Shown here: positions 2,904-59,563 of the stretch, piece by piece
Layout of the letters: every line of letters starts with the position of its first letter
How positions within the stretch are numbered: the stretch's first letter is position 1
Virus genome (UHGV): UHGV-0030339
DNA length: 60,348 nucleotides
Source: a virus
Reading direction: 5' to 3' (one strand)
Translations under genes and position numbers: made by a program
The notes under the pieces: model-generated
What the model was told of the DNA's origin: nothing
Seen by the model: only the letters and a program-made list of their open reading frames with translations
The model's database searches: none

Positions 2904-3569
2904 TTATGCTGTCAGATATGCAATATCTGCAAATCTCTCCAATCTGTCTTTGCAGTCCTTGTAAATATCCTTATATGGCATATTCATTGACATGTCAATT
3001 CTGATTGTCTGTAAAATGATGCTTTCAACTAACGTCAGGTTATTCAGGTCGGTAACCGATGCAGCGTCCCGGTTTCCCCCAACAATTGACTTAGCCAGCT
3101 TCGTATATGTGAGATACAGTTTATCAGAATGCGTACTGCCCTGTTCTTTCGCATAATCAACAAGCATCTTGATCACATCAGTTTCTTTCAGCCGGTTTTC
3201 TTTATTGGCAAGTCTGGTGTCGTTCCACTGCTTTGACTGTTTTTCGCGAATAAATTCTCTCATTCTGATAAACTCGCTTGCCAGTCTTGCTTTGAAATTT
3301 ACTACCGCGCCATCTACGCCATCGTTTCTCAAAAGCGTCATCAGAAACATTGCCTGCCCCTCATTTAAAAAGTATATTTTTTCTTTTTGACCGTTTTTTG
3401 AAGGCTCCGTTTTAAACGTAACCTTTCCGAGCATAGGTGTTTTTTCAAACACTTCCTCATACTTCTGTATAATTTCTCTTACATTTTTGTGCTGATTTCC
3501 AGTTCCTTCCGCAATCATCTTGCTGTTTGTAAATACATCATTCCCTTTGAGTTCAACCAATTCATACAT
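2904..3569 (-). CDS. Rha-family phage regulatory protein (antirepressor-like)
   Basis: N-terminal NDVFTNSKMIAEGTGNQHKNVREII matches the Rha family signature. Confidence 0.6.
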   Translation of the reverse strand: MYELVELKGNDVFTNSKMIAEGTGNQHKNVREIIQKYEEVFEKTPMLGKVTFKTEPSKNGQKEKIYFLNEGQAMFLMTLLRNDGVDGAVVNFKARLASEFIRMREFIREKQSKQWNDTRLANKENRLKETDVIKMLVDYAKEQGSTHSDKLYLTYTKLAKSIVGGNRDAASVTDLNNLTLVESIILQTIRIDMSMNMPYKDIYKDCKDRLERFADIAYLTA

Positions 3570-8078: not shown

Positions 8079-8100
8079 TTTGCACCTCTTTTCTGTAAAA

Positions 8101-8138
8101 CAAAAAAAGGGAGATAAGTGATTAAACCTATCTCCCTA
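8101..8138 (-). terminator. intrinsic terminator between the CHAP lysin gene and the TMP gene
   Basis: minus-strand gggagata-loop-tatctccc followed by a T7 run, then RBS and the TMP ATG. Confidence 0.6.
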
Positions 8139-8142
8139 AAAC

Positions 8143-8922
8143 TTAAAAATTTCCCACATCCTGTTTGCCATCTGAATTTGTCAAGTACAATGCACACTCA
8201 TATGGATGTCCTGATCTAGGCTCAAAGTAATACCAACTATCGCCAATCTCTTGCCAGCCAGTTACCGCATATCCATCTTTGTTGAAATAATACTTATGAT
8301 GGTTGATAACTTTCCAACAATTTTTGCAATATGTTGATTTCGTATCTGCATACCACCAACCATTGCTATCATGGTTCCATCCAACAGTGTATGAATTACT
8401 TTCTGCAAGGGTCCAATCCGGTCTTCCATATCCATCAATTCTGCTGTTGTTAAGATTATACGATTTTTCGCAGACGGCACCACCATTGGCGACAACTTCT
8501 GCACCACTGCTGGTATTACCTTCAATCGTATAGACTTTCCCACCGGAAACTTTTATTACAATTCCGGTGTGGCATATTCTTGACGAATTGCGAAAAAAAA
8601 TCTGGTCTCCTGGTTTGGGATCAGATTTGTGGTATTGGCCCTTATTTTTAAAATATTGTGCAGACGTAGGAGTATAAGCGCTAAAGCCATCACACAACAA
8701 TTGTTTAGCTTTTACTGAACCAAAGGCTTGTACAAAACACCAGTCTACGAACATATCACACCACGCTTGACCTTGAAGTGACGGATAAATATCCCTGGCA
8801 TACTTTGTGTAATTATTGCTACCTGCATTGCCGGTTTTACTATCTAGAATATCATTTGACCTTTTTTCAAGATATCCAACTTCTGCTTTTGCAATTCCTA
8901 TTAATCTGTCAACTACGCTCAT
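8143..8922 (-). CDS. CHAP-domain peptidoglycan hydrolase with C-terminal cell-wall-binding repeats (endolysin or virion lysin)
   Basis: QAWCDMFVDWC (Cys) and ICHTGIV (His) catalytic motifs; C-terminal GW...WYY choline-binding-type repeats. Confidence 0.75.
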   Translation of the reverse strand: MSVVDRLIGIAKAEVGYLEKRSNDILDSKTGNAGSNNYTKYARDIYPSLQGQAWCDMFVDWCFVQAFGSVKAKQLLCDGFSAYTPTSAQYFKNKGQYHKSDPKPGDQIFFRNSSRICHTGIVIKVSGGKVYTIEGNTSSGAEVVANGGAVCEKSYNLNNSRIDGYGRPDWTLAESNSYTVGWNHDSNGWWYADTKSTYCKNCWKVINHHKYYFNKDGYAVTGWQEIGDSWYYFEPRSGHPYECALYLTNSDGKQDVGNF

Positions 8923-21068: not shown

Positions 21069-21141
21069 TCGGAACACCTGGACTTGAACCAAGGCGCATG
21101 GCTTATAAGGCCACCGCTCTAACCAACTGAGCTATGTTCCG
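21069..21141 (-). tRNA. tRNA, anticodon TAT (Ile-like)
   Basis: cloverleaf folded by hand: acceptor CGGAACA/TGTTCCG, D-arm GCTC..GAGC, anticodon loop CTTATAA, T-loop TTCAAGT. Confidence 0.7.
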
Positions 21142-21443
21142 TTTTTAAATGCGGTGCCGCTTCTCCAAACTGCATATGCCCCGTGAAAGCATTCTAGGTG
21201 ATATGCAAGCACCTGACGGCCTTGTACGTGACCGCCGAACGGATTTTAACGTCTTTACTGACCTTAACCTTATTGCGAGGAGAAGGATTCTGCTGCCTAT
21301 AACAGCCGTGTTGACGCACAGGTTGATTTTCACAAATCCCACCGGACCTTGTGACGGTCCTTTAATCAGCTTTCCGCTAGTGGGTCAGGGAGGATACCTA
21401 TATGAAAACACATACAGATATTGGGGCCCTTGCCATACCCCAG

Positions 21444-21516
21444 CTAGGCTACCGGGATTTGAACCCGGGCATTCAGGAGTCAAAGTCCTGTGTCTTTACC
21501 GCTTGACTATAGCCCA
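21444..21516 (-). tRNA. tRNA-Gln (anticodon TTG) with U1-A72 and G73
   Basis: acceptor TGGGCTA/TAGCCTA, anticodon loop CTTTGAC, T-arm CCGGG-TTCAAAT-CCCGG. Confidence 0.7.
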
Positions 21517-25663: not shown

Positions 25664-26057
25664 GCCGAAACGCCCGCCAGGGCGTCCACCGCGGGACGGT
25701 CTCCCGGTGCTGATGAGGCAGACCAGAAAGGGAAAAACATGAGTAGCGAAGATAGACACGTTTTAGAAAGCTTGGTATTTGCTTATTTTGTCGGTGAAAT
25801 GGAAATGGAGCCGATCACGGCACGCCGCAAAGTTGACAACATGACAGATGAGCAACTAGAAAGCTTTACAAAATAACCGCCGCAGGGGATGCAAGCCCGG
25901 CCCGATACCGGGCGGCGGTGTTTATCTCCCGGCTCCCAGGTTGAAAGGGAAGAAAGAAAAGCTATGTTAGATTTTATCATGGCGATATGCATATTTTTAG
26001 GTGGTTATGCGTGCCGCGTAGCTGCTGAGGATACAGAAGAATAAGGAGGTTCACACA

Positions 26058-26354
26058 ATGAGAAAATACGATTTTGACAAAATGGGCGGTTTATGGGCAG
26101 ATCAGGCCCGCGAGATTACAGAAAAGGGCGTATTTGTAGCCCATTCCGGCAATTGGGATTTATGGAGCTATTCCGGCACTGTTTATAGTATCCCGGTTAA
26201 AGGCTCCGGCTGCGGTGCTTCCGCTTGGTGTGCCCTGTCCAATCTGCGGCGGCATCTGTACCACCTGCGGAACGTCTGCGGCTATGCAGATCTAATCCCG
26301 GCATATTGGGAAGATATCAACCGGGATTTCCTGAACTCTTACGGTATTGTATAA
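26058..26354 (+). CDS. hypothetical protein
   Basis: RBS aaggagg; 98 aa. Confidence 0.5.
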   Translation: MRKYDFDKMGGLWADQAREITEKGVFVAHSGNWDLWSYSGTVYSIPVKGSGCGASAWCALSNLRRHLYHLRNVCGYADLIPAYWEDINRDFLNSYGIV

Positions 26355-26399
26355 ATATTGCCTGCTATCCGGATCCAGTCCGGCGAGGGTTCGCGACCT

Positions 26400-27300
26400 G
26401 TAGCAGGCGTTTCCTCTGTTGTACCTTGCCACGCCCGGCAAACGTGGAAACCATACCGGAACAGAGATAACAAAGCGGCTAGGATGTCAGGAAAGCGAAG
26501 GCAGCCGCAAAACTTCGCAACGATTTTATAGCAGCCCCAAGAGCATATACAGCAAATAAACGGCCTTAAAGCCGTTCCGAGAGCCGCGAGCGGTAAATAA
26601 CAGCGGCGATCCTGTGAGGGCTACCCATGCGGTAATAAGTGCATACACCAGGCGCAAGGAAAAGCGGAACCCGTGGAGGTTGGCAATAATCCATAACCAG
26701 AGATACCACGTTAAACACAAGGGCTCATATTGGACGCAGCCGAGAGCGTAAGACCCGAAAACCGCACGAGACCGGGAAAGCGGTATAAAATCGGCCCGGC
26801 ATCGTGTCAACGCCTTAAGGGACACAAACAAAGATTGAAGGCAATCAGAAAAAAAGTACTTGCTGCAGATCACCAGCAAGCCGGGCACTTGTAAACCTTT
26901 CCACCCTCTGCCGGAGTTAGGCAGCGCACAACGGGCGGCGATATAGTCCAGTATAGCGCGGGAGGTACTCCCTATAAGCCACGGGGCAGGACGTGGACGG
27001 AAGAAGGACACACTATACAAAGCAACCAGAAAACCACAGCAAAGCAGAAAGAAAGTGATAAAAATGTTTACAGCTGACATCATAAGCCAGAAAACAAGGG
27101 CGGTGTATATTGCCGCCCCGGTATCTATGATCTTGTTAATTCTTCAATATATTTGTACGGCGGGTTTTGCCTCTGCTCACACGCTTCTTTTGCTTGCGCT
27201 GCCTGTATTCAGTCTTTATGATTGTTATGTTTCCGCGCTTTTCTTCCATTCTAATCTTGACGGCCTCCGGGATATAGGCAGACGTTATAAGCCGGTGCTT
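26400..27300 (+). ncRNA. candidate large structured non-coding RNA (purine-rich, ORF-free, many local hairpins); strand uncertain
   Basis: no ORF in any + frame; the only minus ORF is a no-A compositional artefact; hairpins such as aacggccttaaagccgtt, cttgctgcagatcaccagcaag, gggaggtactccc. Confidence 0.3.
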
Positions 27301-27313
27301 GGTTCCCGATCTA

Positions 27314-28024
27314 CTACCCATTTATCCACACCCCCGCATCATTTAAAACGGTTTGTCCGCCACTGATCCGCCGGATCTGCTGCCCGTATGACTCCAGGTA
27401 GACCACCGGCGCAAGGTCCCGGGGTAAATTCTGAAGCTCAGGCCCCACAACTAGCACTTGATCTGGATGTAACCGGCGAATCATTTCCCGGTATCCAGTC
27501 TCAAAGCAGTGTTTCCCGTCATCCCAGAAGCAGCCGGTTGTACTTATTGCCACTGTTCCGCCCTGGCTCAGTCCGTCAAAACAAAAACTAAAGCTGTCTG
27601 GGCTGCCCCATCCAACCGAAGGAATCACTTCAAAACCGTTGGCATGGAGCCACCAGCTAAGCGCCCGGCTTCTGTAGACTTGCCAAACCTTCATAGCTAG
27701 CGGCATACCGTCATAAAATGAAAAATCCGGTGCGCAAACATATCTGAAATTCTCCAAAATTCCAAAATATTTCTCTGGATTATTCCATAATCGCTCAAAC
27801 CTGTGATCGTCAATAAAAAAATGGCATACAGAATTTCTGGGCTTTAGTTCTCTTTGTGCCAAATTAAAAGGCACTGCTTTAACTCCAGTCAAATCTGCGT
27901 TGACCGCCGGAAGTTTTGGAAAACCATATTTCCCGTCTAATTCTGAGCCATACAAATAGCGCTCACGTATTACATCGTTAATCGTATTGATTTCTTGATA
28001 CATTCGGTTCTCTCCTTTCGTCAA
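27314..28024 (-). CDS. hypothetical protein
   Basis: 236-aa ORF. Confidence 0.45.
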   Translation of the reverse strand: MTKGENRMYQEINTINDVIRERYLYGSELDGKYGFPKLPAVNADLTGVKAVPFNLAQRELKPRNSVCHFFIDDHRFERLWNNPEKYFGILENFRYVCAPDFSFYDGMPLAMKVWQVYRSRALSWWLHANGFEVIPSVGWGSPDSFSFCFDGLSQGGTVAISTTGCFWDDGKHCFETGYREMIRRLHPDQVLVVGPELQNLPRDLAPVVYLESYGQQIRRISGGQTVLNDAGVWING

Positions 28025-32509: not shown

Positions 32510-33859
32510 TTAAAAAGTAACGAAACGAATTTCTATATCGTTTCCGCTAATAACAATTCTTTCAATACATTCTTTCAAAACTCGGTTTTTCTCCTTAACA
32601 GAAAGCGTGTCCCAAACATCCGAAACATGCTTAATCTCTTGGATTTTTTGGGTATTATCTGGTTCCTTTCTATCATTTTCAGTTAAAAGTTGTTTGTTCA
32701 GTTTTTCAATTTTCTTTTCCGTCTCCTTGATGACGTCCATCAAGTTTTTACTTGGATTATCTGCATAAAGTACATATAAACGTTTGACATGCTCATTTTC
32801 TTTTCTAATTGCTACTTTGAGCTTTGCAACCGGATCATCTTTCGGTCCACTATTCGCTTTAACATTGATAGCAAACTTTTTAAAGCAGTCTTCCACATCT
32901 GCTTCTATAATCTCTGCATATGCTTTAATGTTAGTGCAGTTTTTATCCCGAATCATGTAACTCTTGCCACTGTATTGCGAGTAGCAAATAATGCGTGGCT
33001 TTATTCCGTCCCATTTATGATATCTCATCCTAGCACCACATATTCCACAGTAACACAGTCCACTTAACAAATAACCATTTGACACATGAGCATTTGTTGA
33101 ACGCTTTTTTTGCATATCTTGAACCAAGTAAAAAGTTTCTTCGTCAATGATAGGTTCATGCTTGCCTTTATAGACATTGCCTTTGTATTCAATTAATCCA
33201 ATGTATGTTTTACGCTTAAGCGCATTTTTCACAACATTTTCACAGCTAAATCCAAGAATATTAGCAATTTTATCACATGAGTATCCTTTCAGGTAAAGTC
33301 TAAATGCATCACGAACCAGAGCTGCCTTATCAGTATTGACATGGAGTATTCCGTCATTTCTATCGTAATAATACCCAACAGGAATATTTCCACCACCAGG
33401 CCAAAGACCGTTTTTTACACGTTCAACCATTCCTGAAGACATCCTCATTCGGATGACTTCCCTCTCATACTGGTTCATTGCTGCGTTCATAGTCAGCATC
33501 ATTCTATCCATTGGATTTTCTGTCCGCAACTCTTCTGTCATGGACACAACCTTTACTCCATATCCAGGAAGTGTTTTGTAGAACAAAGTCAGTGTATCAA
33601 TAACATCACGACTCATACGATCCAATTTATAGATGTACACCGTATCTATGATTCCACTTTTTGCATGTTCAAGCAACTCCTGTATCTCCGGTCTATCAAG
33701 TTTACTTCCACTATACCCCCCGTCTATGTACCATTTGTCAATAGTAATACCATGTTTTTCACAGTAATCCATGATTTTTTGTTTCTGCATATCCAAGCCG
33801 TATTTTTCAGTCTGTGTCTCTGTTGATACTCTCAAATATGCCACTTGCAATTTGCTCAT
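32510..33859 (-). CDS. large serine recombinase (phage integrase)
   Basis: N-terminal YLRVSTETQ...DRMSRD resolvase catalytic domain plus zinc-ribbon/coiled-coil C-terminus; 449 aa. Confidence 0.85.
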   Translation of the reverse strand: MSKLQVAYLRVSTETQTEKYGLDMQKQKIMDYCEKHGITIDKWYIDGGYSGSKLDRPEIQELLEHAKSGIIDTVYIYKLDRMSRDVIDTLTLFYKTLPGYGVKVVSMTEELRTENPMDRMMLTMNAAMNQYEREVIRMRMSSGMVERVKNGLWPGGGNIPVGYYYDRNDGILHVNTDKAALVRDAFRLYLKGYSCDKIANILGFSCENVVKNALKRKTYIGLIEYKGNVYKGKHEPIIDEETFYLVQDMQKKRSTNAHVSNGYLLSGLCYCGICGARMRYHKWDGIKPRIICYSQYSGKSYMIRDKNCTNIKAYAEIIEADVEDCFKKFAINVKANSGPKDDPVAKLKVAIRKENEHVKRLYVLYADNPSKNLMDVIKETEKKIEKLNKQLLTENDRKEPDNTQKIQEIKHVSDVWDTLSVKEKNRVLKECIERIVISGNDIEIRFVTF

Positions 33860-42918: not shown

Positions 42919-43662
42919 TCACTTCATAAAATCCGGCATTGCCTGCTGGCCGTCTGGTTCGGTTATTGTTTCCGGTTCTTCTGGTTCAAAATCAACCATA
43001 TTGGCATTGGCTGCAATTTCTTTTTGAGCCTGCATCTGCATTTCTTCCACTGGATATTCCTTAAAGTCGTTGTCCTGCATTTCCTCTTTTGTATACAGTC
43101 CCATAGTCAGTTCTGGGCAATTAAGGCTAGAAAAGAAAGATGCAGCTCTGTAACGAAGCATCAGCTGTGGCATGGTTTTCCATTTGCTTCCATTTTTAGA
43201 AAGCCAGCCTTCATCTTTTGCCATATCCATATCAACAGTCATACCTTCAACTCGTCTGCCGTTCTTCATTGTCCATGCCATGCAAGAAAATGGCTTCCCG
43301 TCTTTATCCTTCGTTTCCTCAAACTGCAATTCCATGTCAAATTTTCCAGAATTGTTAATAGCTGCAATCAAGAATTTAGAACTCCATGACGGTCTACCTT
43401 GGATTACATAAAGGTTCTGCATAACCATAAGCGGACTAACCTTAAGCCGATTGGCCTGCTCTATTGCAATTAAACAGTTTGCATCATTCCTCTGAAATGT
43501 AGCCGGAACAATTGTAGAACTCGAAAGCGCTTTAGCCATTTGCATAGCCATAATGAAATTGTCTGACGTACCAAAAATTCCAAGACTGTAGTCTGTCACT
43601 TTGTTTCTTGCCTGAATGGCCTCTTTCTTTTCCTCCGTTACTGCTATCTGTGTATCTGCCAT
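42919..43662 (-). CDS. recT: RecT-family single-strand annealing protein
   Basis: 247 aa; family pattern; acidic C-terminus. Confidence 0.7.
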   Translation of the reverse strand: MADTQIAVTEEKKEAIQARNKVTDYSLGIFGTSDNFIMAMQMAKALSSSTIVPATFQRNDANCLIAIEQANRLKVSPLMVMQNLYVIQGRPSWSSKFLIAAINNSGKFDMELQFEETKDKDGKPFSCMAWTMKNGRRVEGMTVDMDMAKDEGWLSKNGSKWKTMPQLMLRYRAASFFSSLNCPELTMGLYTKEEMQDNDFKEYPVEEMQMQAQKEIAANANMVDFEPEEPETITEPDGQQAMPDFMK

Positions 43663-43911: not shown

Positions 43912-44934
43912 CTACCTTTCCAATAATTCTTTTACATACAAATCCATTGAATGGCACAGCTTAATGCAATTTCCATGTAATGCATGGTTTTTCCAAGCAT
44001 TATATTTTTCGTAAAACTTCTCTTCTGGCATTTTTTCAACCTTAACCAACTCTATCCATTTACGGATGTTTTTCTTGGCTCTACGTTTGTTGCTGCCATT
44101 CAATTTCCTTATATACTTGCCGTCAGATGTTATATAATGGTGAAAACCTGTAAAAGCTATCCCACATTTAAACGGAACTATTTGTGTTTTCCCATTTAGC
44201 TCCAATTTAAGGCTTGACAGAATTTGTATTATCTGATCTAAGCACATCTTCAGATACCCTTTGTCTGGATGAATTAAATAAAAATCATCCATATATCTCC
44301 CATACCTGGAAATTTTGAGATTTTCCGTAATGATATGATCCATTTCATCTAACATCAGAAGCGCATATACCTGCGCTACCTGGTTTCCAAGGGGAAGTCC
44401 CAGACCTTCTGTACTGTCAATAAATAAATGGTTCAGCCATTTAATGTACTCATCTGGGAAATGATAATCTACAATCTGTTTGAGGATTTCGTGATCTATC
44501 TTGTAGAAAAACTTCCTGATATCACACTTAAGAATCCAACCAGATAGTCCGTATTGGCTATAAAACTCTAACATCTGCTCTTTCAGGCAATCCATTCCAT
44601 AATGAGTACCTTTACCCTCTTGCCCGGCATAATTCGTTCTGATAAAACGTTCCTTTAATACCGGATGCAAGATTTCATCGCAAAGACAATGCTGCACCAC
44701 TTTGTCTTTAAAAGAACACGATTTAATCACCCGTTCTTTAGGCTCATATATTTTAAATTCATTGTACGGGTTCATACTATATGTCTGATTTTCCAGTTGC
44801 TCTTTTAATAGGTGCAAACCTTCCAAATTCATAGTCTGGAATTTCGCACAACTTCCATTAAAACCTTTACCAGACTTAGCTTTCCTATACGCTTTATACA
44901 GGTTTTCATAACTACATATAACATCTTTATACAT
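43912..44934 (-). CDS. diversity-generating retroelement reverse transcriptase
   Basis: 340 aa; DGR-RT N-terminus (NLYKAYRKAKSGK...DKVVQHCL), LGNQVAQ (DGR variant of the QGxxxSP box), YMDD. Confidence 0.85.
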   Translation of the reverse strand: MYKDVICSYENLYKAYRKAKSGKGFNGSCAKFQTMNLEGLHLLKEQLENQTYSMNPYNEFKIYEPKERVIKSCSFKDKVVQHCLCDEILHPVLKERFIRTNYAGQEGKGTHYGMDCLKEQMLEFYSQYGLSGWILKCDIRKFFYKIDHEILKQIVDYHFPDEYIKWLNHLFIDSTEGLGLPLGNQVAQVYALLMLDEMDHIITENLKISRYGRYMDDFYLIHPDKGYLKMCLDQIIQILSSLKLELNGKTQIVPFKCGIAFTGFHHYITSDGKYIRKLNGSNKRRAKKNIRKWIELVKVEKMPEEKFYEKYNAWKNHALHGNCIKLCHSMDLYVKELLER

Positions 44935-45032
44935 TGTAAAAATTCCTTTGTATTTACCCTTCCTGGGAGGGCCATGAGCTTTTTTGTATCTTTTACTGAT
45001 TTCGGCTTAATGCCTACTCTTACCGTCTGTGT

Positions 45033-45106
45033 GATACAGAATGGACGAACACCGTTGTTGTTATTGTAATTGTTGTTGTTGATATTGCCGGAAGGCGAAA
45101 CAACGG
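45033..45106 (-). repeat. DGR template repeat (TR)
   Basis: 74 bp homologous to the VR copies; coding sense is AAC/AAT-rich (GNINNNNYNNNNGVRPF); every TR-VR mismatch sits at a TR adenine. Confidence 0.85.
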
Positions 45107-45131
45107 TTTGTACAGTTCACAGCCCAATTTC

Positions 45132-45503
45132 TTATCTTTCTCTGTCTTTCGTTCTCCAAGCAATCGCCATATGCTTAATATCGGTCACTATTTTTGACCA
45201 ATATTCCATGCTTTTCACATTGATAATATTTAACTTCATGGACAATTCAATGTAAAACAGAAGCTCATCGCAATGTGTGATTGCCTTGGTTTGCAATTCT
45301 GACCGGTCCCTGCGATATGATTTCAAATCAGTTCTGTTTGCTTCGTACAGATACTCATAAATTTCAAGAGCCTTATTCTGCATTTTATCTACAAGAGAAA
45401 ATCTATATTTCTTGGGATACCGGTTGCAATTTGAAGTCACTCGCAAGGTATGCTCCGCCAGTTCCTTTGCTTTAAGAATCACCTTTAAGTCGTTTTCTGC
45501 CAT
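45132..45503 (-). CDS. avd: DGR accessory variability determinant (Avd)
   Basis: 123-aa basic helical protein between the VR-bearing gene and TR-RT. Confidence 0.7.
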   Translation of the reverse strand: MAENDLKVILKAKELAEHTLRVTSNCNRYPKKYRFSLVDKMQNKALEIYEYLYEANRTDLKSYRRDRSELQTKAITHCDELLFYIELSMKLNIINVKSMEYWSKIVTDIKHMAIAWRTKDRER

Positions 45504-45507
45504 TTAC

Positions 45508-46122
45508 TTATTCCTCTGATTCAAAGATTGAAGAGGAAAAGATACAAAACGGACGAACACCGTTGCTGCCATAGTAACTGCAGTAGTTGACATCGCCGGA
45601 AGGCGAAACAACGGCTACTGTACTGGAATAATCATTGCAGGGTGTACTCCATGGAGTAATTAACCACCACCATTTATTTGCATTAGGAATGTACTCCCTA
45701 TATTTTCTGTACTCATCTACTGTCAGAAGAGACATTTTATCAGTGCATGATCCGTATTCTGTCTGACCATCCAGAGAAATGAGATTTCTTTCAAACTCTA
45801 ATACATTTCCTTTACCTATTTCTTCTTCCAGCTTTTCTAAAAACTCTTTGTTCAGATAGCTTCTCAGGTCACTTGTTTTCCAGTTGTTATCATCAGAGTC
45901 AAATTCTCTATTTCCAATAGATTCTGCCAGGCACATATATCCCGCATCTGTAATATCCAGAATTTTCCATGTTGTTCCAGCAAGTTGAAATTCGTCTCCG
46001 ATTGAAAGTCCAGCCGGTAGATTCTTCATGTTCTTAGAATCGTTACCTTTCAATGCATTTATTTCTTTCTTCAACTCATCGATCTGATCCTGAAGCACTT
46101 TCATTGTTAATGCCATGATCAT
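45508..46122 (-). CDS. DGR target protein 1 (DUF1566/C-type-lectin-like variable domain at C-terminus)
   Basis: C-terminal ...WWWLITPWS...VAVVSPSGDVNYCSYYGSNGVRPF; VR at its 3' end. Confidence 0.8.
   Translation of the reverse strand: MIMALTMKVLQDQIDELKKEINALKGNDSKNMKNLPAGLSIGDEFQLAGTTWKILDITDAGYMCLAESIGNREFDSDDNNWKTSDLRSYLNKEFLEKLEEEIGKGNVLEFERNLISLDGQTEYGSCTDKMSLLTVDEYRKYREYIPNANKWWWLITPWSTPCNDYSSTVAVVSPSGDVNYCSYYGSNGVRPFCIFSSSIFESEE
45541..45614 (-). repeat. DGR variable repeat VR1
   Basis: flanks ggacgaacaccgtt / gccggaaggcgaaacaacgg identical to TR; internal differences only at TR adenines. Confidence 0.85.
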
Positions 46123-46718
46123 TCTCCCTTCGATACAAAGATATGAGATTTCAAGATACAGAACGGACGAACACCGTGGAAGTTAATGCAACCGCTGTTG
46201 CTGACATTGCCGGAAGGCGAAACAACGGCTACTGAGTACTCCCAACCGCGTTCTTTGGTGCTCCATGGGGTGCATGTCCACCCCCAGTCATTCAGATTCT
46301 TATTGACAAGCAGGTCATTAAATTCCCTTGCCTCATCAAAGGTAATTGGCCTTACTTTGCATACACAGTCTTCATATTCATGCTGCATATCTACCGATGC
46401 CAAGTTTACAGTATGCTCAATCAGATTTTCTGCGCCTACAGCATTTTCAATGATCGGCTGAATATCCGATTCAATCAGTTTTTTAAGTTTGGACTTATTG
46501 TAATCTGTTGATCTTTTGTCAAATTCAACATTCTCGGCCATAAAGCCCTTTGAAATAACTGCCGCATAATTAGGTGCCTGCATAAGCACGATAAAATCAT
46601 GCTCACCAACTTTAAATACTTCCCCTGGCTTCAGTTCTGACAGCCTCGCTTCGTTCTTTTTCTCTGCTTCTTCTAATCGCTTTACTAACTCTCTTGCCAT
46701 GTCTAAGGCTTTGCTCAT
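46119..46718 (-). CDS. DGR target protein 2 (paralog of target 1)
   Basis: C-terminal ...CTPWS...VAVVSPSGNVSNSGCINFHGVRPF; ATGA overlap with target 1. Confidence 0.8.
   Translation of the reverse strand: MSKALDMARELVKRLEEAEKKNEARLSELKPGEVFKVGEHDFIVLMQAPNYAAVISKGFMAENVEFDKRSTDYNKSKLKKLIESDIQPIIENAVGAENLIEHTVNLASVDMQHEYEDCVCKVRPITFDEAREFNDLLVNKNLNDWGWTCTPWSTKERGWEYSVAVVSPSGNVSNSGCINFHGVRPFCILKSHIFVSKGE
46155..46228 (-). repeat. DGR variable repeat VR2
   Basis: same conserved flanks; adenine-specific substitutions relative to TR. Confidence 0.85.
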
Positions 46719-49928: not shown

Positions 49929-50198
49929 TCACCCTCTTTCTACTTCAAAGTTAATTTTTTTATTGGTTTTGAATTTTATCTCTTCTATTTCTCCAATTCC
50001 GTCTTGTTTCATTATTAAAACAGATAAATCTACCGCAAGATCAAGTGCATTCAAATCCAACGTTAACGTTGGTACTGAATTTCCCACTTCCTGTTTAAGC
50101 TCAAATCTACGGACTCCATCAACTTTGTGTCCGTCAATAAGCACTTCTGTGAAAATTCCATGTTCGCCATCTACCTGTCGAATTTCAAGTTTTCCCAT
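49929..50198 (-). CDS. hypothetical protein, paralog of 52535..52807
   Basis: shared IDG.K..GVR.FELKQ....PTLT.DLNA pattern. Confidence 0.45.
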   Translation of the reverse strand: MGKLEIRQVDGEHGIFTEVLIDGHKVDGVRRFELKQEVGNSVPTLTLDLNALDLAVDLSVLIMKQDGIGEIEEIKFKTNKKINFEVERG

Positions 50199-52534: not shown

Positions 52535-52807
52535 TTAGCTTTCACTACCAAGCAATTCGCTTTCATTGCCGTAATCGTCCTTAAGCGTTATCTTCAATTC
52601 TCCGTAGCCTTTGTGCCGTAAAATGCCCAAGCAGTCCACGCTCATGTTCATGGCATTAAGGTCTACGGTCAATGTGGGGATACCAGGCGCATCTTGTTTC
52701 AGTTCAAAGCTTCTCACGCCCTTCAGCTTTACCCCATCAATGAATATTTCCGTATATCCATCTTTGACATTTGACTTAATTTCTATATTAGGGTAATTAT
52801 CTTTCAT
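52535..52807 (-). CDS. hypothetical protein, paralog of 49929..50198
   Basis: see paralog. Confidence 0.45.
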   Translation of the reverse strand: MKDNYPNIEIKSNVKDGYTEIFIDGVKLKGVRSFELKQDAPGIPTLTVDLNAMNMSVDCLGILRHKGYGELKITLKDDYGNESELLGSES

Positions 52808-53275: not shown

Positions 53276-53315
53276 ATCGCTTACCTCCTTTCGTAGTATT
53301 AAGAAAAGCAATAGC

Positions 53316-53429
53316 CTAAGCATTTAATAATGCCTCGACCTCTGCTCTAATCTTTTTCGGTACTTCATCAATTGTTTTTTTGCCCTTGCGGATTAAGTCC
53401 GCATATACTGTTGCCATGTAGCTTGCCAT
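53316..53429 (-). CDS. second XkdX-like small protein (37 aa)
   Basis: MASYMATVYADLIRKGKKTIDEVPKKIRAEVEALLNA. Confidence 0.45.
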   Translation of the reverse strand: MASYMATVYADLIRKGKKTIDEVPKKIRAEVEALLNA

Positions 53430-53431
53430 GA

Positions 53432-53800
53432 TTAAGCCTCCTTTGTGGTAGTTGTAGTGGTCTGGTTTGCTTCATAAAGTTCAGTCAATGCTAACTGGGT
53501 GTTAGTGACTTCATCTTCCAGTGCCAGATTAGCTTCATACTGCTCGGTAAGAGCTAACTGGGCTTCGGTGAGCTGGTCTTCCAAATCTGTTACTCTAATC
53601 TGTAGTTTTCCAATATCTGATTCTGGCAGATAAGAAAACACTGCTTTAGGCTCATCTGGATTAGTTACGTCAATTCTTTCAAGAGCTGCTCCGTCTGGAA
53701 TGTCCACGAACATTGACAACAGACCTTGTGGGGCTTGTTCTTCCCCATATACAATTGACCAGATTCTACCTGTGGCATCGTAAATTACTAATGCTTTCAT
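53432..53800 (-). CDS. tail-fiber-associated hypothetical protein with internal 42-bp tandem duplication
   Basis: QLALTEQYEAN / QLALTELYEAN repeat. Confidence 0.4.
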   Translation of the reverse strand: MKALVIYDATGRIWSIVYGEEQAPQGLLSMFVDIPDGAALERIDVTNPDEPKAVFSYLPESDIGKLQIRVTDLEDQLTEAQLALTEQYEANLALEDEVTNTQLALTELYEANQTTTTTTKEA

Positions 53801-53890
53801 TTGTTCTGTTCCTTTCTTGATTGTGATATACTGTTAATATCTTTTTACTTTTCTACAAATTTCTGCACCACACCCATTACCTGTTGATAC

Positions 53891-53933
53891 TATACTTTAT
53901 GGGAAGTCGATTTTTGGTGTAGCGGGGAATGTA
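53891..53933. repeat. inverted repeat L of the tail-fiber invertible segment
   Basis: tatactttatgggaagtc 18-bp perfect core; ~43 bp imperfect IR with 54527-54570. Confidence 0.75.
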
Positions 53934-54263
53934 AGACGATATGCTTATAAAAGTGGAACTGTTAATTCGTCTTCTGGTACACTGGCTTTTAAGGAAAGTG
54001 GTGGTTCAACCTATTATCTTCATTATTGTCAGATAAACAATATAGGATTTACCCCTATACTGGCTGTTTTTTTTGGTAGTGGTCACGTAACAATAGTTAG
54101 CAGTGGTGGCAATATAAACTTAGAAGCACAAAACGCAAGTGGAACCGGATATTATGCGAAAGGTTCCAATAGTAATGTAGTATTTAGCAGTTCTAAAGTA
54201 CAGGTGCCATCCACGTATCCTAGTGCAAATCCACATTGGTATTTTATAGCTGGATATTATTAA
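53891..54263 (+). other. promoterless alternative tail-fiber C-terminal cassette (no start codon) inside an invertible segment
   Basis: + frame encodes TILYGKSIFGVAGNV...AGYY*, paralleling ILYGKSIFGVSGNV...VTGYY* of the minus-strand gene. Confidence 0.7.
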
Positions 54264-54913
54264 TAGTATCCTGTAACGTAGTAATTGTATGTAAAATTAG
54301 CTGTAGTAACTTTTATTGTGATTGAATTACCATTTCTTGTTGGTGTAGATGTAGGCATGCTTGGGAGAATTAATGTATCTCTTGGATTCCATGGTACAGT
54401 TATTGATACATCTCTAGGATCTTCCACTTTCATCAAAATCCAGGATGTCACATAAAATCCAGGATTTAAAGTAACATAACCATTATTGTTTGAATTAACC
54501 TGTCCACTTCGAGATGCGTGCTGACGTACATTACCACTTACTCCAAAAATGGACTTCCCATAAAGTATATTATTACCAGTTAAATTCCCATCACCTTTGA
54601 TAACAATATCGCCGGTCATTTTCTTACCACTGCATGATACTGTCTGTTGAGCCGTATTAGGCGTATAAGTCCCACCACTCATCGTACCCATGGTGCCGGT
54701 CTGCTTGCTTTTGGGATTGGTGGTATAGAAAGTTTTACCGGATAACACATCACCGGCTCCGGCATCGCCACTAAGGGTTAGTGTACCTGTTAAAGGCTCT
54801 CCATCTACGCCAACAATTACCTTTCCAGACAAAACATCGTCCGCTGCGGCTGATACAACATCGAGGTCAATTCCACCACTACCACCAATCATTAATACCT
54901 GTCCCATGGTCAT
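54260..54913 (-). CDS. tail fiber / receptor-binding protein with switchable C-terminus
   Basis: DVLSGK..Y repeats; C-terminal half lies within the invertible segment. Confidence 0.65.
   Translation of the reverse strand: MTMGQVLMIGGSGGIDLDVVSAAADDVLSGKVIVGVDGEPLTGTLTLSGDAGAGDVLSGKTFYTTNPKSKQTGTMGTMSGGTYTPNTAQQTVSCSGKKMTGDIVIKGDGNLTGNNILYGKSIFGVSGNVRQHASRSGQVNSNNNGYVTLNPGFYVTSWILMKVEDPRDVSITVPWNPRDTLILPSMPTSTPTRNGNSITIKVTTANFTYNYYVTGYY
54527..54570. repeat. inverted repeat R of the tail-fiber invertible segment
   Basis: reverse complement of IR-L, located inside the fiber gene at codons ~115-129. Confidence 0.75.
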
Positions 54914-55368
54914 ACCCCTTTCAAGCCAATAACAATATCAACTGTTGGCAGTTTGTAAACTTTAAATGTCACACTGCCGTCTGCTGTAGTTCCAGTTCCA
55001 GAAGATATAATTCCAAATGCTTTACTATATGCCTTTTGTGCATCCACAGAAGCCCCATCAGCAAGCATACTTACAATTATTGGATTATCGTCTGCCCTAA
55101 GTCCCTCAACATCTACAGTTTGGCTATATGGGGCTGTATCGCCTACCCAACCAGTAGCAGTCAGTGTAACCGGTGTAATATGATTTATCTGATTGACATT
55201 TTTATTAGTCTTGTTGATATCATTTGCCCCAAAGGTATCCCCAACCTGTGAATAACTTGTAGCATCTGTAAACGATACTGTGCCATCATCATTGCTTGTT
55301 TGCGTATATTTGCGACTGTTTCCAGATGCAATGATATCGTCCATATAACTCGTTTTTAAAGTTTCCAT
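54910..55368 (-). CDS. tail fiber/baseplate-associated protein
   Basis: position, coupled ORF. Confidence 0.4.
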   Translation of the reverse strand: METLKTSYMDDIIASGNSRKYTQTSNDDGTVSFTDATSYSQVGDTFGANDINKTNKNVNQINHITPVTLTATGWVGDTAPYSQTVDVEGLRADDNPIIVSMLADGASVDAQKAYSKAFGIISSGTGTTADGSVTFKVYKLPTVDIVIGLKGV

Positions 55369-55775
55369 CAGGTTCTCACTCCTTTCACATTCCCAAGTCT
55401 AAATGCTAATACTGGCAACCCAGCTTCCAGCCTGTTCAACATTTCATAGATTCTTAATGTCGCAGACTCTATCCTGTTCAACTCATTCCATTGGATAAAT
55501 GCTCCATTGCTGTAAAAGGTAGATGTCATGCCTATATTCTGGGTGTAAACGTTTTTGTTGATGGTTTCCAGATTCTTCTCAAAATTATTGATTTCTTTGG
55601 CATACGGATAATCCGCATACCCTTTATCAGCTCCCATATCAATAATTCCAAAATTAGGGTAAAATTGTTCTGCTCTTTCATGCAGAAAATTCAAGTTCCC
55701 TTTTATCCGATTGTAATCACTGGCATTGAATCTGTCAGAAGATTCCCAATCAGTTTTAGGTTGTATCCATGGCAT
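55368..55775 (-). CDS. tail fiber N-terminal/collar-like protein
   Basis: MPWIQPKTDWESSDRFNASDYNRIKGNLNFL motif common at N-termini of Firmicutes prophage fiber proteins. Confidence 0.45.
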   Translation of the reverse strand: MPWIQPKTDWESSDRFNASDYNRIKGNLNFLHERAEQFYPNFGIIDMGADKGYADYPYAKEINNFEKNLETINKNVYTQNIGMTSTFYSNGAFIQWNELNRIESATLRIYEMLNRLEAGLPVLAFRLGNVKGVRT

Positions 55776-58078
55776 TACTCCACCACCTTCCTAGCCTTTA
55801 ATGTGCCGCTCCAAGCACCGCTATAATTTAGCTCGTTTTGATATGCACGTATCATTGTCTTATCCCTGTCTTTCAATTCCAGAAAGAATAAATCATTAGC
55901 ATCTGTACGTGGGTCTCCATTCCAAGGGATTTGATAATCAACATCGCCTAGATAATATTCTGCTAACCATTCTTCCTGGTCCTTCGCCAACTTTTCTTCA
56001 CTGATGAGCGGATTATTCCATGTCTTATTCACTCCTGTATCATTGTGCTTTGCAGTATAAGACTTTTCTAATACCACATATTCGTATCCGCTTACAGAAA
56101 TCTGAATGGAATCCCCGACTGTACCTGTAACTTTGATATTCGCATAATAATTGCTGCTCGATACTATTTCGACCACTGCTGTTCCTGAAGTAACAGATAC
56201 TTCCAGTCCATATGCAGGATTTGTAAAATATATCGTCTTTGTTATTTCTTCGCTATCAAGTGTCAATTCCTCTGATGTCAATTCAGTGATTTCCGCTTGC
56301 GACATGCTGTATATATTTCGTTTAACCGTAATGGACTGAATTTTCTCTTGCCTAGTAGCTACAGGAGATCCTTTTAAATTAAAATCTCGTGACAGCGTAT
56401 AATCTGTTGAGTCTCCAAATGATACTTTATCAACTGTTATCCTTGCATTAGGATATCCTTTCGAAAAAACGATTTCCATTTCATCGAATTTTTCAAGTTG
56501 TTCTTTATACTCACTATGCAGTTGTGGATTTTCTATCTCAATATCTTGTACCTGTTCTTGTTGATAATAAGTGATAATATGGTATTTCTGAGGTGCTACA
56601 TTACGAAAATCAATTGAAAATCCAAAACATGTGTATCCTGTTTCTAAGTCAATATTAATTTTAGGAATATCTTCAAAATCACCATTTGAATCCGCTATAC
56701 TATCACTAACGTACCCTGTATCTTTTGAGTACTCCGCTTCATTCTCCGGCAGAAACAAAACAGATCCGTCAACCAATGAAAAATCATTACTATACATGGC
56801 ATAGCCTATACGCTGATCTTGTTTCAAAACATTCTCAACATGGCTAAACTTTGTCTCGTTGTTAGCAGCTTTAATACCGGCCGGTAAAACATCCGCTCCT
56901 GGATACAAAAATCTACTCGGATATACAAGATCAATACCGGCACTGGCATACATGTCTGGCAGAAATGATGATTTTATCCATACCCTTCCTTGCCGGTCAA
57001 CACTTAATACACATCTGCCTGCATTTGAGATTATCTGTAATGCCTCTGAATGTTTTACCACCGGAACAGGATTATACACCTTAACATTTTGCAAATATGG
57101 ATCAACCACGTACTCATCTGTTTTCATACCGGCATCTTCCAGTACATCTAATGCCAAATCATAAAGTGATATTCCTTCTGGTCTATACAATCCCCTGTAA
57201 TACGTCCCATTCAATTTCCAGTCAAACACATCAACCATTGTGAATTTGGCTTCTGTATCAGTTGCGCTCCAAGATTTTAAAAATGCTGTAATTTCAGGAA
57301 CCCATTCAATATTCCTAGTCCCATCCAGATCATATCCAAATGACACTTTCATTTGCTGTCCTTGTTCCATATAAGCAACTGCTGATTCTGGATTATCTGG
57401 ATTGTAATATAGGTTCTGATTATCTACAGTCAAAGTCATATCTTGGCTTGGAAGCGATTCACAAATCGTTGATACATAATCCTTATAAGTAAATGATTTC
57501 ACTTGCTTATTTGAGAAAGTATTTGAAATTCCACATGTAAATTCCAAAATCCTCATTCTTCCCTGCCCATTAACCATTGTCAGTGGGGTTATCCGCAAGA
57601 AAGAAATAGCATCGAATGTATCTTCTGTAACGAAATTCCGGGAAGAATTTTCATAGGTTTGTGTGCCATTATCAGATTGAACTGTAAATGAAGTTGGGTA
57701 ATATTCGCCAAAATCAATTGTCAAGCCTTTTATGTCTGCCACATTGCCGTCAAAGTTAATATATACTGAGCCTTGGATTTTATCTGGAACCAAGCCATTA
57801 TTGTAATAGGCATATCCGTCATCCTGCTCTGGAAGAAAATACATTGTGCCGTCAACCTTGGCAAAATCTTCTTCCAGTGTAGCGTATACCTGGCTAACTG
57901 TATTACCTTTAAATGCTGCTGTTGTATTTGCAAAATAGGCAAAATCATTGTCTGCTTCACTTGCCACTATATTATTTTGTGCTATTGAACTAATAATACC
58001 AATCCTGGCAGTGATATAACCACGATTCCTATTAGGTTTTCGCATGGCTTTTTTATAAGCTGCACTTACAGTTTGCAT
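55775..58078 (-). CDS. tail-associated protein (Tal-like, prophage tail endopeptidase family N-terminus)
   Basis: 767 aa following a Dit-position gene. Confidence 0.55.
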   Translation of the reverse strand: MQTVSAAYKKAMRKPNRNRGYITARIGIISSIAQNNIVASEADNDFAYFANTTAAFKGNTVSQVYATLEEDFAKVDGTMYFLPEQDDGYAYYNNGLVPDKIQGSVYINFDGNVADIKGLTIDFGEYYPTSFTVQSDNGTQTYENSSRNFVTEDTFDAISFLRITPLTMVNGQGRMRILEFTCGISNTFSNKQVKSFTYKDYVSTICESLPSQDMTLTVDNQNLYYNPDNPESAVAYMEQGQQMKVSFGYDLDGTRNIEWVPEITAFLKSWSATDTEAKFTMVDVFDWKLNGTYYRGLYRPEGISLYDLALDVLEDAGMKTDEYVVDPYLQNVKVYNPVPVVKHSEALQIISNAGRCVLSVDRQGRVWIKSSFLPDMYASAGIDLVYPSRFLYPGADVLPAGIKAANNETKFSHVENVLKQDQRIGYAMYSNDFSLVDGSVLFLPENEAEYSKDTGYVSDSIADSNGDFEDIPKINIDLETGYTCFGFSIDFRNVAPQKYHIITYYQQEQVQDIEIENPQLHSEYKEQLEKFDEMEIVFSKGYPNARITVDKVSFGDSTDYTLSRDFNLKGSPVATRQEKIQSITVKRNIYSMSQAEITELTSEELTLDSEEITKTIYFTNPAYGLEVSVTSGTAVVEIVSSSNYYANIKVTGTVGDSIQISVSGYEYVVLEKSYTAKHNDTGVNKTWNNPLISEEKLAKDQEEWLAEYYLGDVDYQIPWNGDPRTDANDLFFLELKDRDKTMIRAYQNELNYSGAWSGTLKARKVVE

Positions 58079-58936: not shown

Positions 58937-59563
58937 TTAAAGCTCATAATCTGGATAAACAGCTTCCCAAACATCTTTATGATAAGCATTAATCGACCCA
59001 TAATTAGCGTCGAAGATCTTCTTGACTTCGTACCCCATACGTTCCCCAGCCTCTTTTAGCCTTCTCCATTTGAATGTTTTCCAAGAAACATTATTCAGTG
59101 CTGCTACTCGCTTGATAGAGTACCAATCTTTGCTTGTATCAAGCTGTGCCTGTAGCTCTGCTTCCCGATCCAGGCTTTCCAAAAGCTGTGCGATAGCGTC
59201 CCGGTAAGACATCGGCATATTCATCTTATCGTCTTTCTTCTGGAAGTAATTGTCAACTAGGCGGTCATACACTTCCCATGCCTGATCCGTATTCAGTGAC
59301 TTAGCGTGAAGAAAAGCACCTTTTTCTGTCCAGAGGTAAATTGTTTTTGCATTTTTCAGACCGTCGTGATTTTCCAGACGGTTCACAAATAAGGTCTTTT
59401 CTTCGTTTTCAAGTTTTATAAAATGTTTTCCTTCTACAAAACGATCAATATTGTGGTTAAAATTGTACGAGATTGTTTTTCTGTCCGTTCCATACGCTTC
59501 CGCAATCTGCTGTGTGGTCAATACTCTCTGGCATCTGTACTCTGTTACTGTTAATCCTTCCAT
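58937..59563 (-). CDS. ORF6N-domain antirepressor-like protein (paralog of 1224..1856)
   Basis: RVLTTQQIAEAYGTDRKTISYNFNHNIDRFVEGKHF. Confidence 0.55.
   Translation of the reverse strand: MEGLTVTEYRCQRVLTTQQIAEAYGTDRKTISYNFNHNIDRFVEGKHFIKLENEEKTLFVNRLENHDGLKNAKTIYLWTEKGAFLHAKSLNTDQAWEVYDRLVDNYFQKKDDKMNMPMSYRDAIAQLLESLDREAELQAQLDTSKDWYSIKRVAALNNVSWKTFKWRRLKEAGERMGYEVKKIFDANYGSINAYHKDVWEAVYPDYEL

Follow-up and report, generated by a model that had tools for sequence, protein, structure and literature searches.

The virus genome UHGV-0030339 (60,348 bp; "the window" below means this whole stretch of DNA) carries, at the end of its tail module, a putative tail-fibre gene whose C-terminal half lies on a 679-bp segment (53891..54569) bounded by an inverted repeat and shared with a second, silent and oppositely oriented C-terminal cassette. 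Homologous segments of 667, 679 and 688 bp occur in both orientations among sister phages. We tentatively propose, with something short of even confidence, that the segment is a two-cassette tail-fibre tip switch flipped by a trans-acting site-specific invertase and not by the phage's own large serine integrase. The window itself probably represents a circularly permuted, complete genome of a temperate phage; a terminal repeat was looked for in the 60,348 bp and none was found.

Anatomy of the invertible segment

Each end of the segment is marked by a copy of an 18-nt perfect core (TATACTTTATGGGAAGTC), the two copies being inverted with respect to each other (53891-53908 on the plus strand and 54552-54569 on the minus strand) and embedded in a longer imperfect inverted repeat detected by a repeat search of the window (arms of 92 nt, 75% complementary; Table 1). 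With as many as three mismatches allowed, the window contains exactly these two copies (chance expectation 0.03). In the expressed gene the core encodes (N)ILYGKS, that is, residues 115-121 of the 217-aa fibre (54260..54913). The plus-strand copy heads a frame without a start codon, which runs open from 53847 up to its stop codon (54261-54263), comprises 123 codons counted from ILYGKS and reads TILYGKSIFGVAGNV...HWYFIAGYY*; the list of open reading frames (ORFs) contains no ATG-, GTG- or TTG-initiated ORF of at least 40 aa in this region. Both tip cassettes, A (expressed) and B (silent), terminate in GYY and converge on overlapping stop codons of the TTATTAA type, a tail-to-tail layout common to all double-cassette relatives. 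The inverted core pair, the start-less frame, the overlapping stops and the GYY ends had been described in an earlier note on this DNA, and all of them were found again.

Inversion of 53891..54569 in silico fuses residues 1-115 in frame to the start-less cassette and produces a 238-aa protein, the computed flipped junctions of the window being ...CTGGTAATAATATACTTTATGGGAAGTCGATTTTTGGTGTAGCGGGG... and ...CCTGTTGATACTATACTTTATGGGAAGTCCATTTTTGGAGTAAGTGG.... The absence of a frame mismatch after inversion, as anticipated in the earlier note, is thus borne out. Of the segment limits given there the left one is correct, and the right one (a repeat copy at 54527-54570) exceeds the true value by a base: with 53891..54570 inverted the reading frame is lost, and the correct end is 54569.

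The fibre gene and its exchangeable tips

Pfam recognizes no family in the fibre or its neighbours, and PHROGs places them in function-unassigned families only (phrog_13589 for the fibre). As to gene order, the tail module runs from the tape measure gene (3660-8078, minus strand) and continues across the window ends to 55775-58078, 55368-55775 and 54910-55368, the distal-tail genes preceding the fibre (767, 135 and 152 aa; phrog_13879, phrog_18725). Downstream of the fibre lie a conserved 122-aa coiled-coil gene and small XkdX/CD1375-like genes, in a region where relatives have holins, and in myovirus-type relatives the identical fibre protein is encoded directly behind genes of the Baseplate_J and Tail_P2_I types. 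The fibre gene is the final large gene of the tail module, combining a constant shaft with a hypervariable C-terminal tip, and it is the tips that would presumably bind the receptor.

The modular nature of the gene is illustrated by a search with the predicted fusion protein, which retrieved 717 relatives sharing the N-terminus up to ILYGKSIFGV(S/A)GNVR. Beyond this point the C-termini are of several unrelated types (labelled A, A', B, C, D and so on) and, with few exceptions, finish in GYY; depending on the contig, identical or near-identical N-termini carry a tip of type A, A', B, C or D. The architecture of the fusion occurs in natural full-length proteins (P0001 and P0002, 72% identity over 99% of the fusion), and tip B is expressed on full-length fibres in four contigs (L001, L020, L212 and L213).

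In an AlphaFold model of the monomer, the predicted local distance difference test (pLDDT) score is below 50 for residues 1-129 and 82-96 for residues 131-217, which adopt a beta-sandwich. The jump from <50 to ~90 right after the motif places the repeat on the shaft/tip boundary, and the low-scoring N-terminal part would be consistent with a shaft whose folding requires oligomerization. Structural matches of the predicted tip to known tail-fibre tips are weak, and a profile search of solved structures returned only insignificant EGFR matches (E ≥0.09). Megablast of the region 53300-56000 against 50,697 GenBank phages gave no match, and therefore no isolated relative is available to guide the annotation.

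Both orientations among sister phages

In related phages, three cassette pairs are found in both orientations. For the A/B pair, one contig (L021) expresses A and carries a complete silent B, and another, from a different sample (L020), expresses B with A silent. Positions 1-710 of L020 align with 188-897 of L021 on the plus strand (98%), and positions 645-1157 align with 1529-1017 on the minus strand (99.4%); the junction in L020 is chimeric: left of a 24-nt identical core it follows the expressed arm of L021, and right of this core it follows the silent arm. Tip B is likewise expressed, beside a complete silent A, in L212 and L213, which represent a 65-kb sibling phage with the window's gene order and diversity-generating retroelement (DGR, see below).

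For the D/A'' pair, L019 differs from L029, L030 and L160 at 3 of 1500 nt in the left flank, 1 of 679 in the segment (once reverse-complemented) and 0 of 400 in the right flank, and these contigs appear to be essentially the same phage in a flipped state. The C/A' pair is flipped likewise (L008 and L012 vs L024 and L162). Counted over unique contigs, the ratio of the two orientations is 10:4 for C/A' and 8:6 for D/A'', and the phages carrying opposite orientations of these pairs differ by only ~0.16%. The natural full-length homologues and the sister lineages in both orientations substantiate the original suggestion that inversion swaps the C-terminal half of the fibre.

An assembly artefact is an unlikely source of these flips, because the repeats are shorter than the reads and the flips are seen repeatedly, in independent assemblies from ENA, JGI and Logan; sequence markers also stay linked to their cassettes consistently. 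As a separate observation, four contigs (L013, L021, L165 and L178) end no more than ~80 nt outside the silent arm, which may reflect assembly breaks arising from coexisting orientations.

The reading frame of the silent cassette is uninterrupted in nearly every double-cassette contig; L159 and L181, which deviate, have frameshifts in both cassettes and the look of noisy assemblies. In a comparison of the window with its close relative L002, the silent B cassettes show 23 synonymous and 6 non-synonymous differences (synonymous divergence, dS, of 0.34; ratio of non-synonymous to synonymous divergence, dN/dS, of 0.06), as against one synonymous difference only in the expressed A (dS 0.014). Since the differences in B are mostly synonymous, this cassette evolves as a protein under purifying selection. 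Evidently, it has been replaced by a diverged allele, independently of its surroundings, between these two phages.

Crossover position and constraint on the core

The arms of close lineages share a perfect tract of 18-27 nt, always including the 18-mer core. Directly 3' of it stand synonymous markers (e.g. CATTTTTGGA vs GATATTCGGT), and beyond them comes a second tract of identity, 15-18 nt long. In four of the five flips that could be deduced, the 3' markers move with the cassette and the 5' flank remains with the N-terminus, and this linkage places the crossover inside the core.

Five codons of the core (ATA CTT TAT GGG AAG) have no synonymous variant in 29 distinct arms, in which 11 of 11 flanking codons downstream and 4 of 9 upstream vary; a part of this arm set was retrieved with the exact 18-mer, and loci retrieved by protein give the same pattern. 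Core variants with one to three mismatches are absent from 2.3 Mb of fetched loci, and the single-cassette relatives, which have ILNGKS, vary freely at the core codon sites. By eye, the dyad symmetry of the core amounts to 4 nt only (ACTT-N6-AAGT; 5/7 if extended).

Possible mechanisms of inversion

The constant N-terminal part of the fibre ends in the conserved junction peptide ILYGKSIFGV, and the junction DNA (with the core TATACTTTATGGGAAGTC) recurs, inverted, before a promoterless and start-less second tip placed tail-to-tail with the expressed one. In the mechanism that we tentatively favour, a reciprocal exchange within the core would invert 679 bp, turning a 217-aa fibre with tip A into a 238-aa fibre with tip B and leaving the remaining operon unchanged. 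The swap would change the receptor-binding domain of the phage, and the two tips presumably differ in receptor specificity. The enzyme recognizing the core would be a conservative site-specific invertase supplied in trans, by the host or by a co-resident element, and there are precedents both for a trans-acting invertase and for an orphan phage inverton (PMC6109161). In our judgement, the involvement of an invertase is suggested by the sharp and invariant core, by the preference for it over a near-equal second tract and by the common occurrence of both orientations among near-identical phages. Flipping at the identical core is seen in L028, a phage with a tyrosine integrase, and the window has this core alongside a serine integrase.

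The absence of a cognate invertase nearby, as pointed out in the earlier note, holds for the window and for ~35 related double-cassette contigs as well. Neither a small serine or tyrosine recombinase nor any Phage_integrase-domain protein was detected by Pfam among the ~40 window ORFs scanned, and a phmmer search of all six-frame window ORFs with the serine recombinase found no small recombinase. There is no Resolvase-domain protein within 4-10 kb of the related double-cassette loci, and no recombinase directly adjoins any of them; L028, with a 412-aa tyrosine prophage integrase 2 kb away, is the sole locus with a Phage_integrase-domain protein. These ~35 contigs span at least four backbones with different integrases.

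Several observations weigh against the proposal of a trans-acting invertase, beginning with the fact that no such enzyme was identified. Outside the fibre family, the exact core appears in IMG/VR and JGI metagenomes as unpaired chance singletons only (degenerate sites were not searched), and this confinement means that there is no sign of a wider regulon; enzymes acting on orphan invertons are unlinked and usually serve several loci sharing one site. The invariance of the core would be expected also if plain arm-to-arm identity were selected: both mechanisms predict a frozen core, since a mutation confined to a single arm would disable the switch. One of the five flips (L027, L165, L175 and L173 vs L019, L029, L030 and L160) needs an exchange in the second tract or gene conversion. 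Nor can a single site-specific enzyme account for the wider relatives, in which the same layout is built on unrelated repeats of 15-89 nt.

The remaining points of this kind concern the window's own lineage. Six further contigs of this lineage (L002-L004 and L209-L211, the last three identical to the window across 2679 nt) all have the window's orientation, and tip A is the one expressed by every member of its 90%-identity protein cluster (~20 contigs). When the flipped 238-aa fusion was sought in the protein collection, no flipped product of the window lineage turned up, and the best full-length matches (72%) came from the sibling lineage. L022, L023 and L026, which are closely related, contain the A' cassette alone, without a silent partner, and the 18 nt of the window are the shortest perfect arm identity seen, flips being documented only at 21-27 nt. 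Phase variation, as claimed originally, is therefore supported for the sister lineages, which exist in both orientations. For the window lineage, with its single orientation, we infer activity from the sibling lineage that flips the same A/B pair, and its own copy would be expected to switch as well.

A second explanation, which we regard as possible yet less probable than the first, retains the switch and dispenses with the invertase: general short-homology recombination at the 18-27-nt tracts would generate rare recombinants, to be amplified by receptor selection. Candidate agents are the phage's RecT-type annealing protein, the host RecA or template switching at replication forks, and it is only here that the RecT-family protein encoded in the window would come into play as a candidate enzyme. 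Inversions of the pneumococcal spnIII hsdS genes without a known site-specific recombinase provide a precedent (PMC6620402). The lack of a flanking recombinase in ~35 double-cassette contigs on at least four backbones would be readily accounted for, as would the wider family, with its unrelated repeats of 15, 22, 58 and 81-89 nt at the same protein junction. The exchange between the L027 and L019 groups in the second 15-18-nt tract (or by gene conversion) and the restriction of flips to identities of at least 21 nt point in the same direction. On the other hand, the usual minimum for efficient homologous exchange is such that tracts of 18-27 nt are at or under it. Four of the five events fell in the core despite a near-equal second tract 10 nt away, the edges of the identity tract are sharp and conserved instead of being extended by gene conversion, and both orientations are common in phages ~0.16% apart.

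The same limited likelihood applies to the notion that the 0.7-kb module is a self-contained, portable tip switch flipped by, for example, RecT and needing no dedicated site-specific recombinase. If true, this would explain its hopping between siphovirus- and myovirus-type Lachnospiraceae phages with different integrases, as well as the absence of an invertase in the ~35 contigs and the reuse of one junction with unrelated repeats. As a matter of judgement, we lean slightly towards a trans-acting invertase over short homology.

It is improbable that the arrangement in the window is a fossil or a passive reservoir, in which the silent cassette only feeds recombination between phages and the copy no longer flips. 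This would be compatible with the single orientation seen in the window lineage, with a core of only 18 nt and with the relatives L022, L023 and L026 that have no silent cassette; the replacement of the silent allele between the window and L002 (dS 0.34 vs 0.014) shows that exchange between phages does happen. However, the core is identical to that of flipping lineages (L034-type arms also have just 18 nt), the silent cassette is intact and under strong purifying selection, and the same A/B pair flips in a sibling phage.

Still less credit can be given to a new type of recombinase among the conserved small genes linked to the fibre (the 122-aa gene at 53432..53800 or the 37-62-aa ORFs downstream), even though they accompany the module in siphovirus- and myovirus-type backbones and have no assigned function. 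The 122-aa gene follows the fibre with 86-98% identity (by tblastn) in window-type and close sister loci and with 46-70% in more distant relatives. It is present equally at single-cassette loci (L015-L018, the former being L005 minus the extra cassette, and L022-L026), travelling with the fibre and not specifically with double cassettes. These genes show no evident catalytic motif, and their position and size match XkdW/XkdX-type proteins of the tail or lysis module (as in the CD1375-like match). A separate feature of the 122-aa gene is an internal 55-nt direct repeat (53466-53583, 71% identical, 63-nt spacing), corresponding to a repeated coiled-coil heptad block (LALTEQYEANLALEDE / LALTELYEAN).

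The use of the large serine recombinase (32510..33859) as an invertase, raised in the earlier note, is the least probable of all. In its favour, the window has no other canonical site-specific recombinase. However, the identical core flips in L028, which has a tyrosine recombinase as its integrase, and a scan of the window (≤3 mismatches), including the surroundings of the integrase gene, gave no third core copy that could serve as an att site. Nor does the presence of the serine recombinase track double cassettes, its close IMG/VR relatives occurring in single-cassette contigs (L022 and L026) and one with a distant fibre (L051) and in 0 of 8 double-cassette IMG/VR contigs (a search that reaches close relatives only). 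Large serine recombinases synapse attP with attB and not two like sites. The accompanying statement that this enzyme is the sole recombinase of the genome is accurate for canonical site-specific enzymes, with the RecT-family gene and the DGR reverse transcriptase left unmentioned.

Comparison with known inversion systems

In functional terms, the locus works like the switches of the Din family (Mu G/Gin, P1 C/Cin, e14 P/Pin and p15B Min). It shares with them a constant N-terminus facing two oppositely oriented C-termini, inverted repeats within the coding sequence at the constant/variable boundary, and a change of host range as the predicted outcome. It differs in the size of the segment (0.68 kb vs ~3-4 kb), in having two tips only with no co-inverted assembly genes of the U/U' type, in lacking an adjacent ~190-aa serine invertase and an enhancer-bearing gene, in its host (a Gram-positive anaerobe of the Lachnospiraceae type instead of enterobacteria) and in an unrelated fibre family (no Pfam match, phrog_13589 only). 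The crossover site of Din-type systems is a 26-bp gix, cix or hix sequence with two inverted half-sites around a central dinucleotide.

The closest architectural precedent is a second, unnamed locus in the bifidophages 689b-1 and Bb423phi2 (Mavrich et al. 2018, PMC6109161), where ~500 bp comprising a small gene and the 3' end of a neighbouring structural gene are inverted between relatives at a short repeat. That locus has no recombinase beside it, and its authors suggested an invertase acting in trans (PMC6109161). In contrast to the present case, it concerns Actinobacteria, an 8-bp repeat, genes of unknown function and a single pair of genomes, whereas here the target is identifiable as a fibre tip, flips recur in three to four cassette pairs and in dozens of contigs, and the module moves between backbones. 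More generally, the locus resembles orphan invertons (the Mpi type of B. fragilis and that of bifidophage 689b-1) in the occurrence of both orientations, here in three sister cassette pairs, and in the lack of a flanking recombinase gene.

In shufflons (bifidophage Rin, R64 Rci), inversion at short repeats likewise swaps the C-terminal specificity domains of a receptor-binding protein. Unlike the present locus, they contain three or more cassettes with asymmetric sites of 11 or 31 bp, next to a dedicated tyrosine recombinase. With two sites and no such enzyme beside it, the locus is not a shufflon, and "shufflon-like", as it was initially called, overstates the case for an element of two sites and two cassettes; all close relatives are two-cassette as well.

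The layout also agrees with the signature of gene-altering programmed inversions (Milman et al. 2023, PMC9881135), in which a full gene faces a shorter, convergent, start-less homologue across inverted repeats: here a 217-aa gene lies tail to tail with a 123-codon start-less cassette. Tail-fibre genes are an enriched target class of such inversions (PMC9881135). Surveys of intragenic invertons (PMC9881135; Chanin et al., bioRxiv 10.1101/2023.03.11.532203) scanned bacterial genomes and found recombinase genes enriched among the neighbours. The spnIII hsdS system (PMC6620402) is comparable with respect to the inversion of specificity domains at short repeats without a strict need for a dedicated recombinase, and differs in being a chromosomal restriction-modification system with a local recombinase (CreX/PsrA) and repeats of 15-333 bp. 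A literature search on the fibre family, its core or phage invertons in Lachnospiraceae found nothing specific; the paper on the Roseburia phage Shimadzu describes a DGR and a cro inversion, not a fibre.

Mobility of the module and its wider family

An identical 231-aa fibre (P0008), together with its silent cassette and a 121-aa downstream gene, is found in phages of different types (L005-L014; e.g. L005, L008 and L009, 4001-5466). Some of these contigs are of the siphovirus type (tape measure, 743-aa distal tail protein) and others of the myovirus type (Baseplate_J, sheath initiator, P2 gpI/gpU-like genes); the three components travel horizontally, as a module, across morphotypes. L005 has, in addition, an IS200/IS605 element at 7116-8696 (TnpB/OrfB and Y1 transposase genes), just downstream of the lysis genes, which is absent from the other double-cassette relatives.

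Distant members of the family also place a convergent silent cassette at the same protein junction but use unrelated repeats: a 58-nt perfect inverted repeat in L041 (1023-2041), repeats of 81-89 nt at 97% in L066, L069, L073, L074 and L075 (~420-1480 nt from the fibre start), and inverted repeats of 15-22 nt in L099 and L120. The cassette expressed in L066 matches (86%) the one that is silent in L069-L075. In the lineage with the 58-nt repeat no comparable flip was found, a single contig being available.

Tail-fibre inversion is known from Mu and P1, that is, from enterobacterial systems with a neighbouring invertase, and the same logic extends here to phages of abundant gut Firmicutes. The novelty lies in a minimal 0.7-kb two-tip module that has no enzyme of its own, moves between unrelated backbones and belongs to a family whose flipping is visible in public metagenomes. 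For the prediction of host range of gut phages, one genome may imply two possible receptor specificities, and the phage has a DGR besides. Practical consequences follow for annotation (gene calling always misses the silent tip) and for assembly (contigs may break at the arms). The locus also bears on the question of how orphan invertons are flipped, and it could serve in engineering as a compact, portable cassette for swapping receptor-binding domains.

Other features of the genome

Coordinates of the fibre locus, the candidate enzymes and the DGR are collected in Table 1.

Table 1. Coordinates, strands and supporting evidence for features of the window discussed in the text
Feature	Position	Strand	Basis
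Invertible segment, 679 bp, with two tail-to-tail tip cassettes	53891..54569	.	In-frame in-silico inversion
Left core copy, head of the silent cassette	53891..53908	+	Core scan
Right core copy, encoding ILYGKS in the expressed gene	54552..54569	-	Sister-lineage crossovers map inside the homologous core
Extended left arm of the imperfect inverted repeat	53877..53968	+	92 nt, 75%, alignment
Extended right arm of the imperfect inverted repeat	54492..54583	-	92 nt, 75%, alignment
Putative tail-fibre/receptor-binding gene, 217 aa, tip A expressed	54260..54913	-	ORF, tail-module position
Constant fibre part, residues 1 to ~115, outside the segment	54570..54913	-	N-termini joined to several tip types
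Tip cassette A, expressed, FGVSGNVRQHASRSGQVNSNNNGYV...YYVTGYY + stop	54260..54551	-	ORF, family alignment
Tip cassette B, silent, start-less, IFGVAGNVRRYAYKSGTVNSS...HWYFIAGYY + stop	53909..54263	+	Translation
Overlapping convergent stop codons TTATTAA	54257..54263	.	Read from sequence and ORF ends
Conserved 122-aa coiled-coil gene, directly downstream of the fibre	53432..53800	-	tblastn; no Pfam family
Large serine recombinase (phage integrase), 449 aa, ~20 kb away	32510..33859	-	Pfam Resolvase + Recombinase + Zn_ribbon_recom
RecT-family single-strand annealing protein	42919..43662	-	Pfam RecT, E = 2e-7
DGR reverse transcriptase	43912..44934	-	DGR
Avd-like gene	45132..45503	-	DGR
DGR template repeat	~45000-45112		DGR
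DGR variable repeat 1	45508-45620		3' end of DUF6273 gene 45508..46122
DGR variable repeat 2	46122-46234		3' end of gene 46119..46718

The DGR occupies window positions 43912-46718, and the differences between its template and variable repeats are located at template adenines. It was ruled out as a diversifier of the fibre, its template and variable repeats (45000-46234) lying in other genes. The phage thus has two separate diversification devices, and the fibre is outside the DGR targets.

Genes with Rha-family and ORF6N domains (antirepressor-like; 2904-3569, 1224-1856 and 58937-59563) are located between the tape-measure and distal tail genes, an unusual place for regulatory genes, where the sibling L212 has Bro-N/ORF6N. 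A pair of paralogous ~90-aa ORFs (52535-52807 and 49929-50198; function unassigned) with the pattern DG.K..GVR.FELKQ...PTLT.DLNA flanks the antirepressor/immunity region, one on each side. A GC-rich island at 26000-28000 (0.49 vs ~0.39) includes a DUF4417 gene (27314..28024), and two phage tRNA genes, for Ile (anticodon TAT) and Gln (anticodon TTG), are present at 21069-21516.

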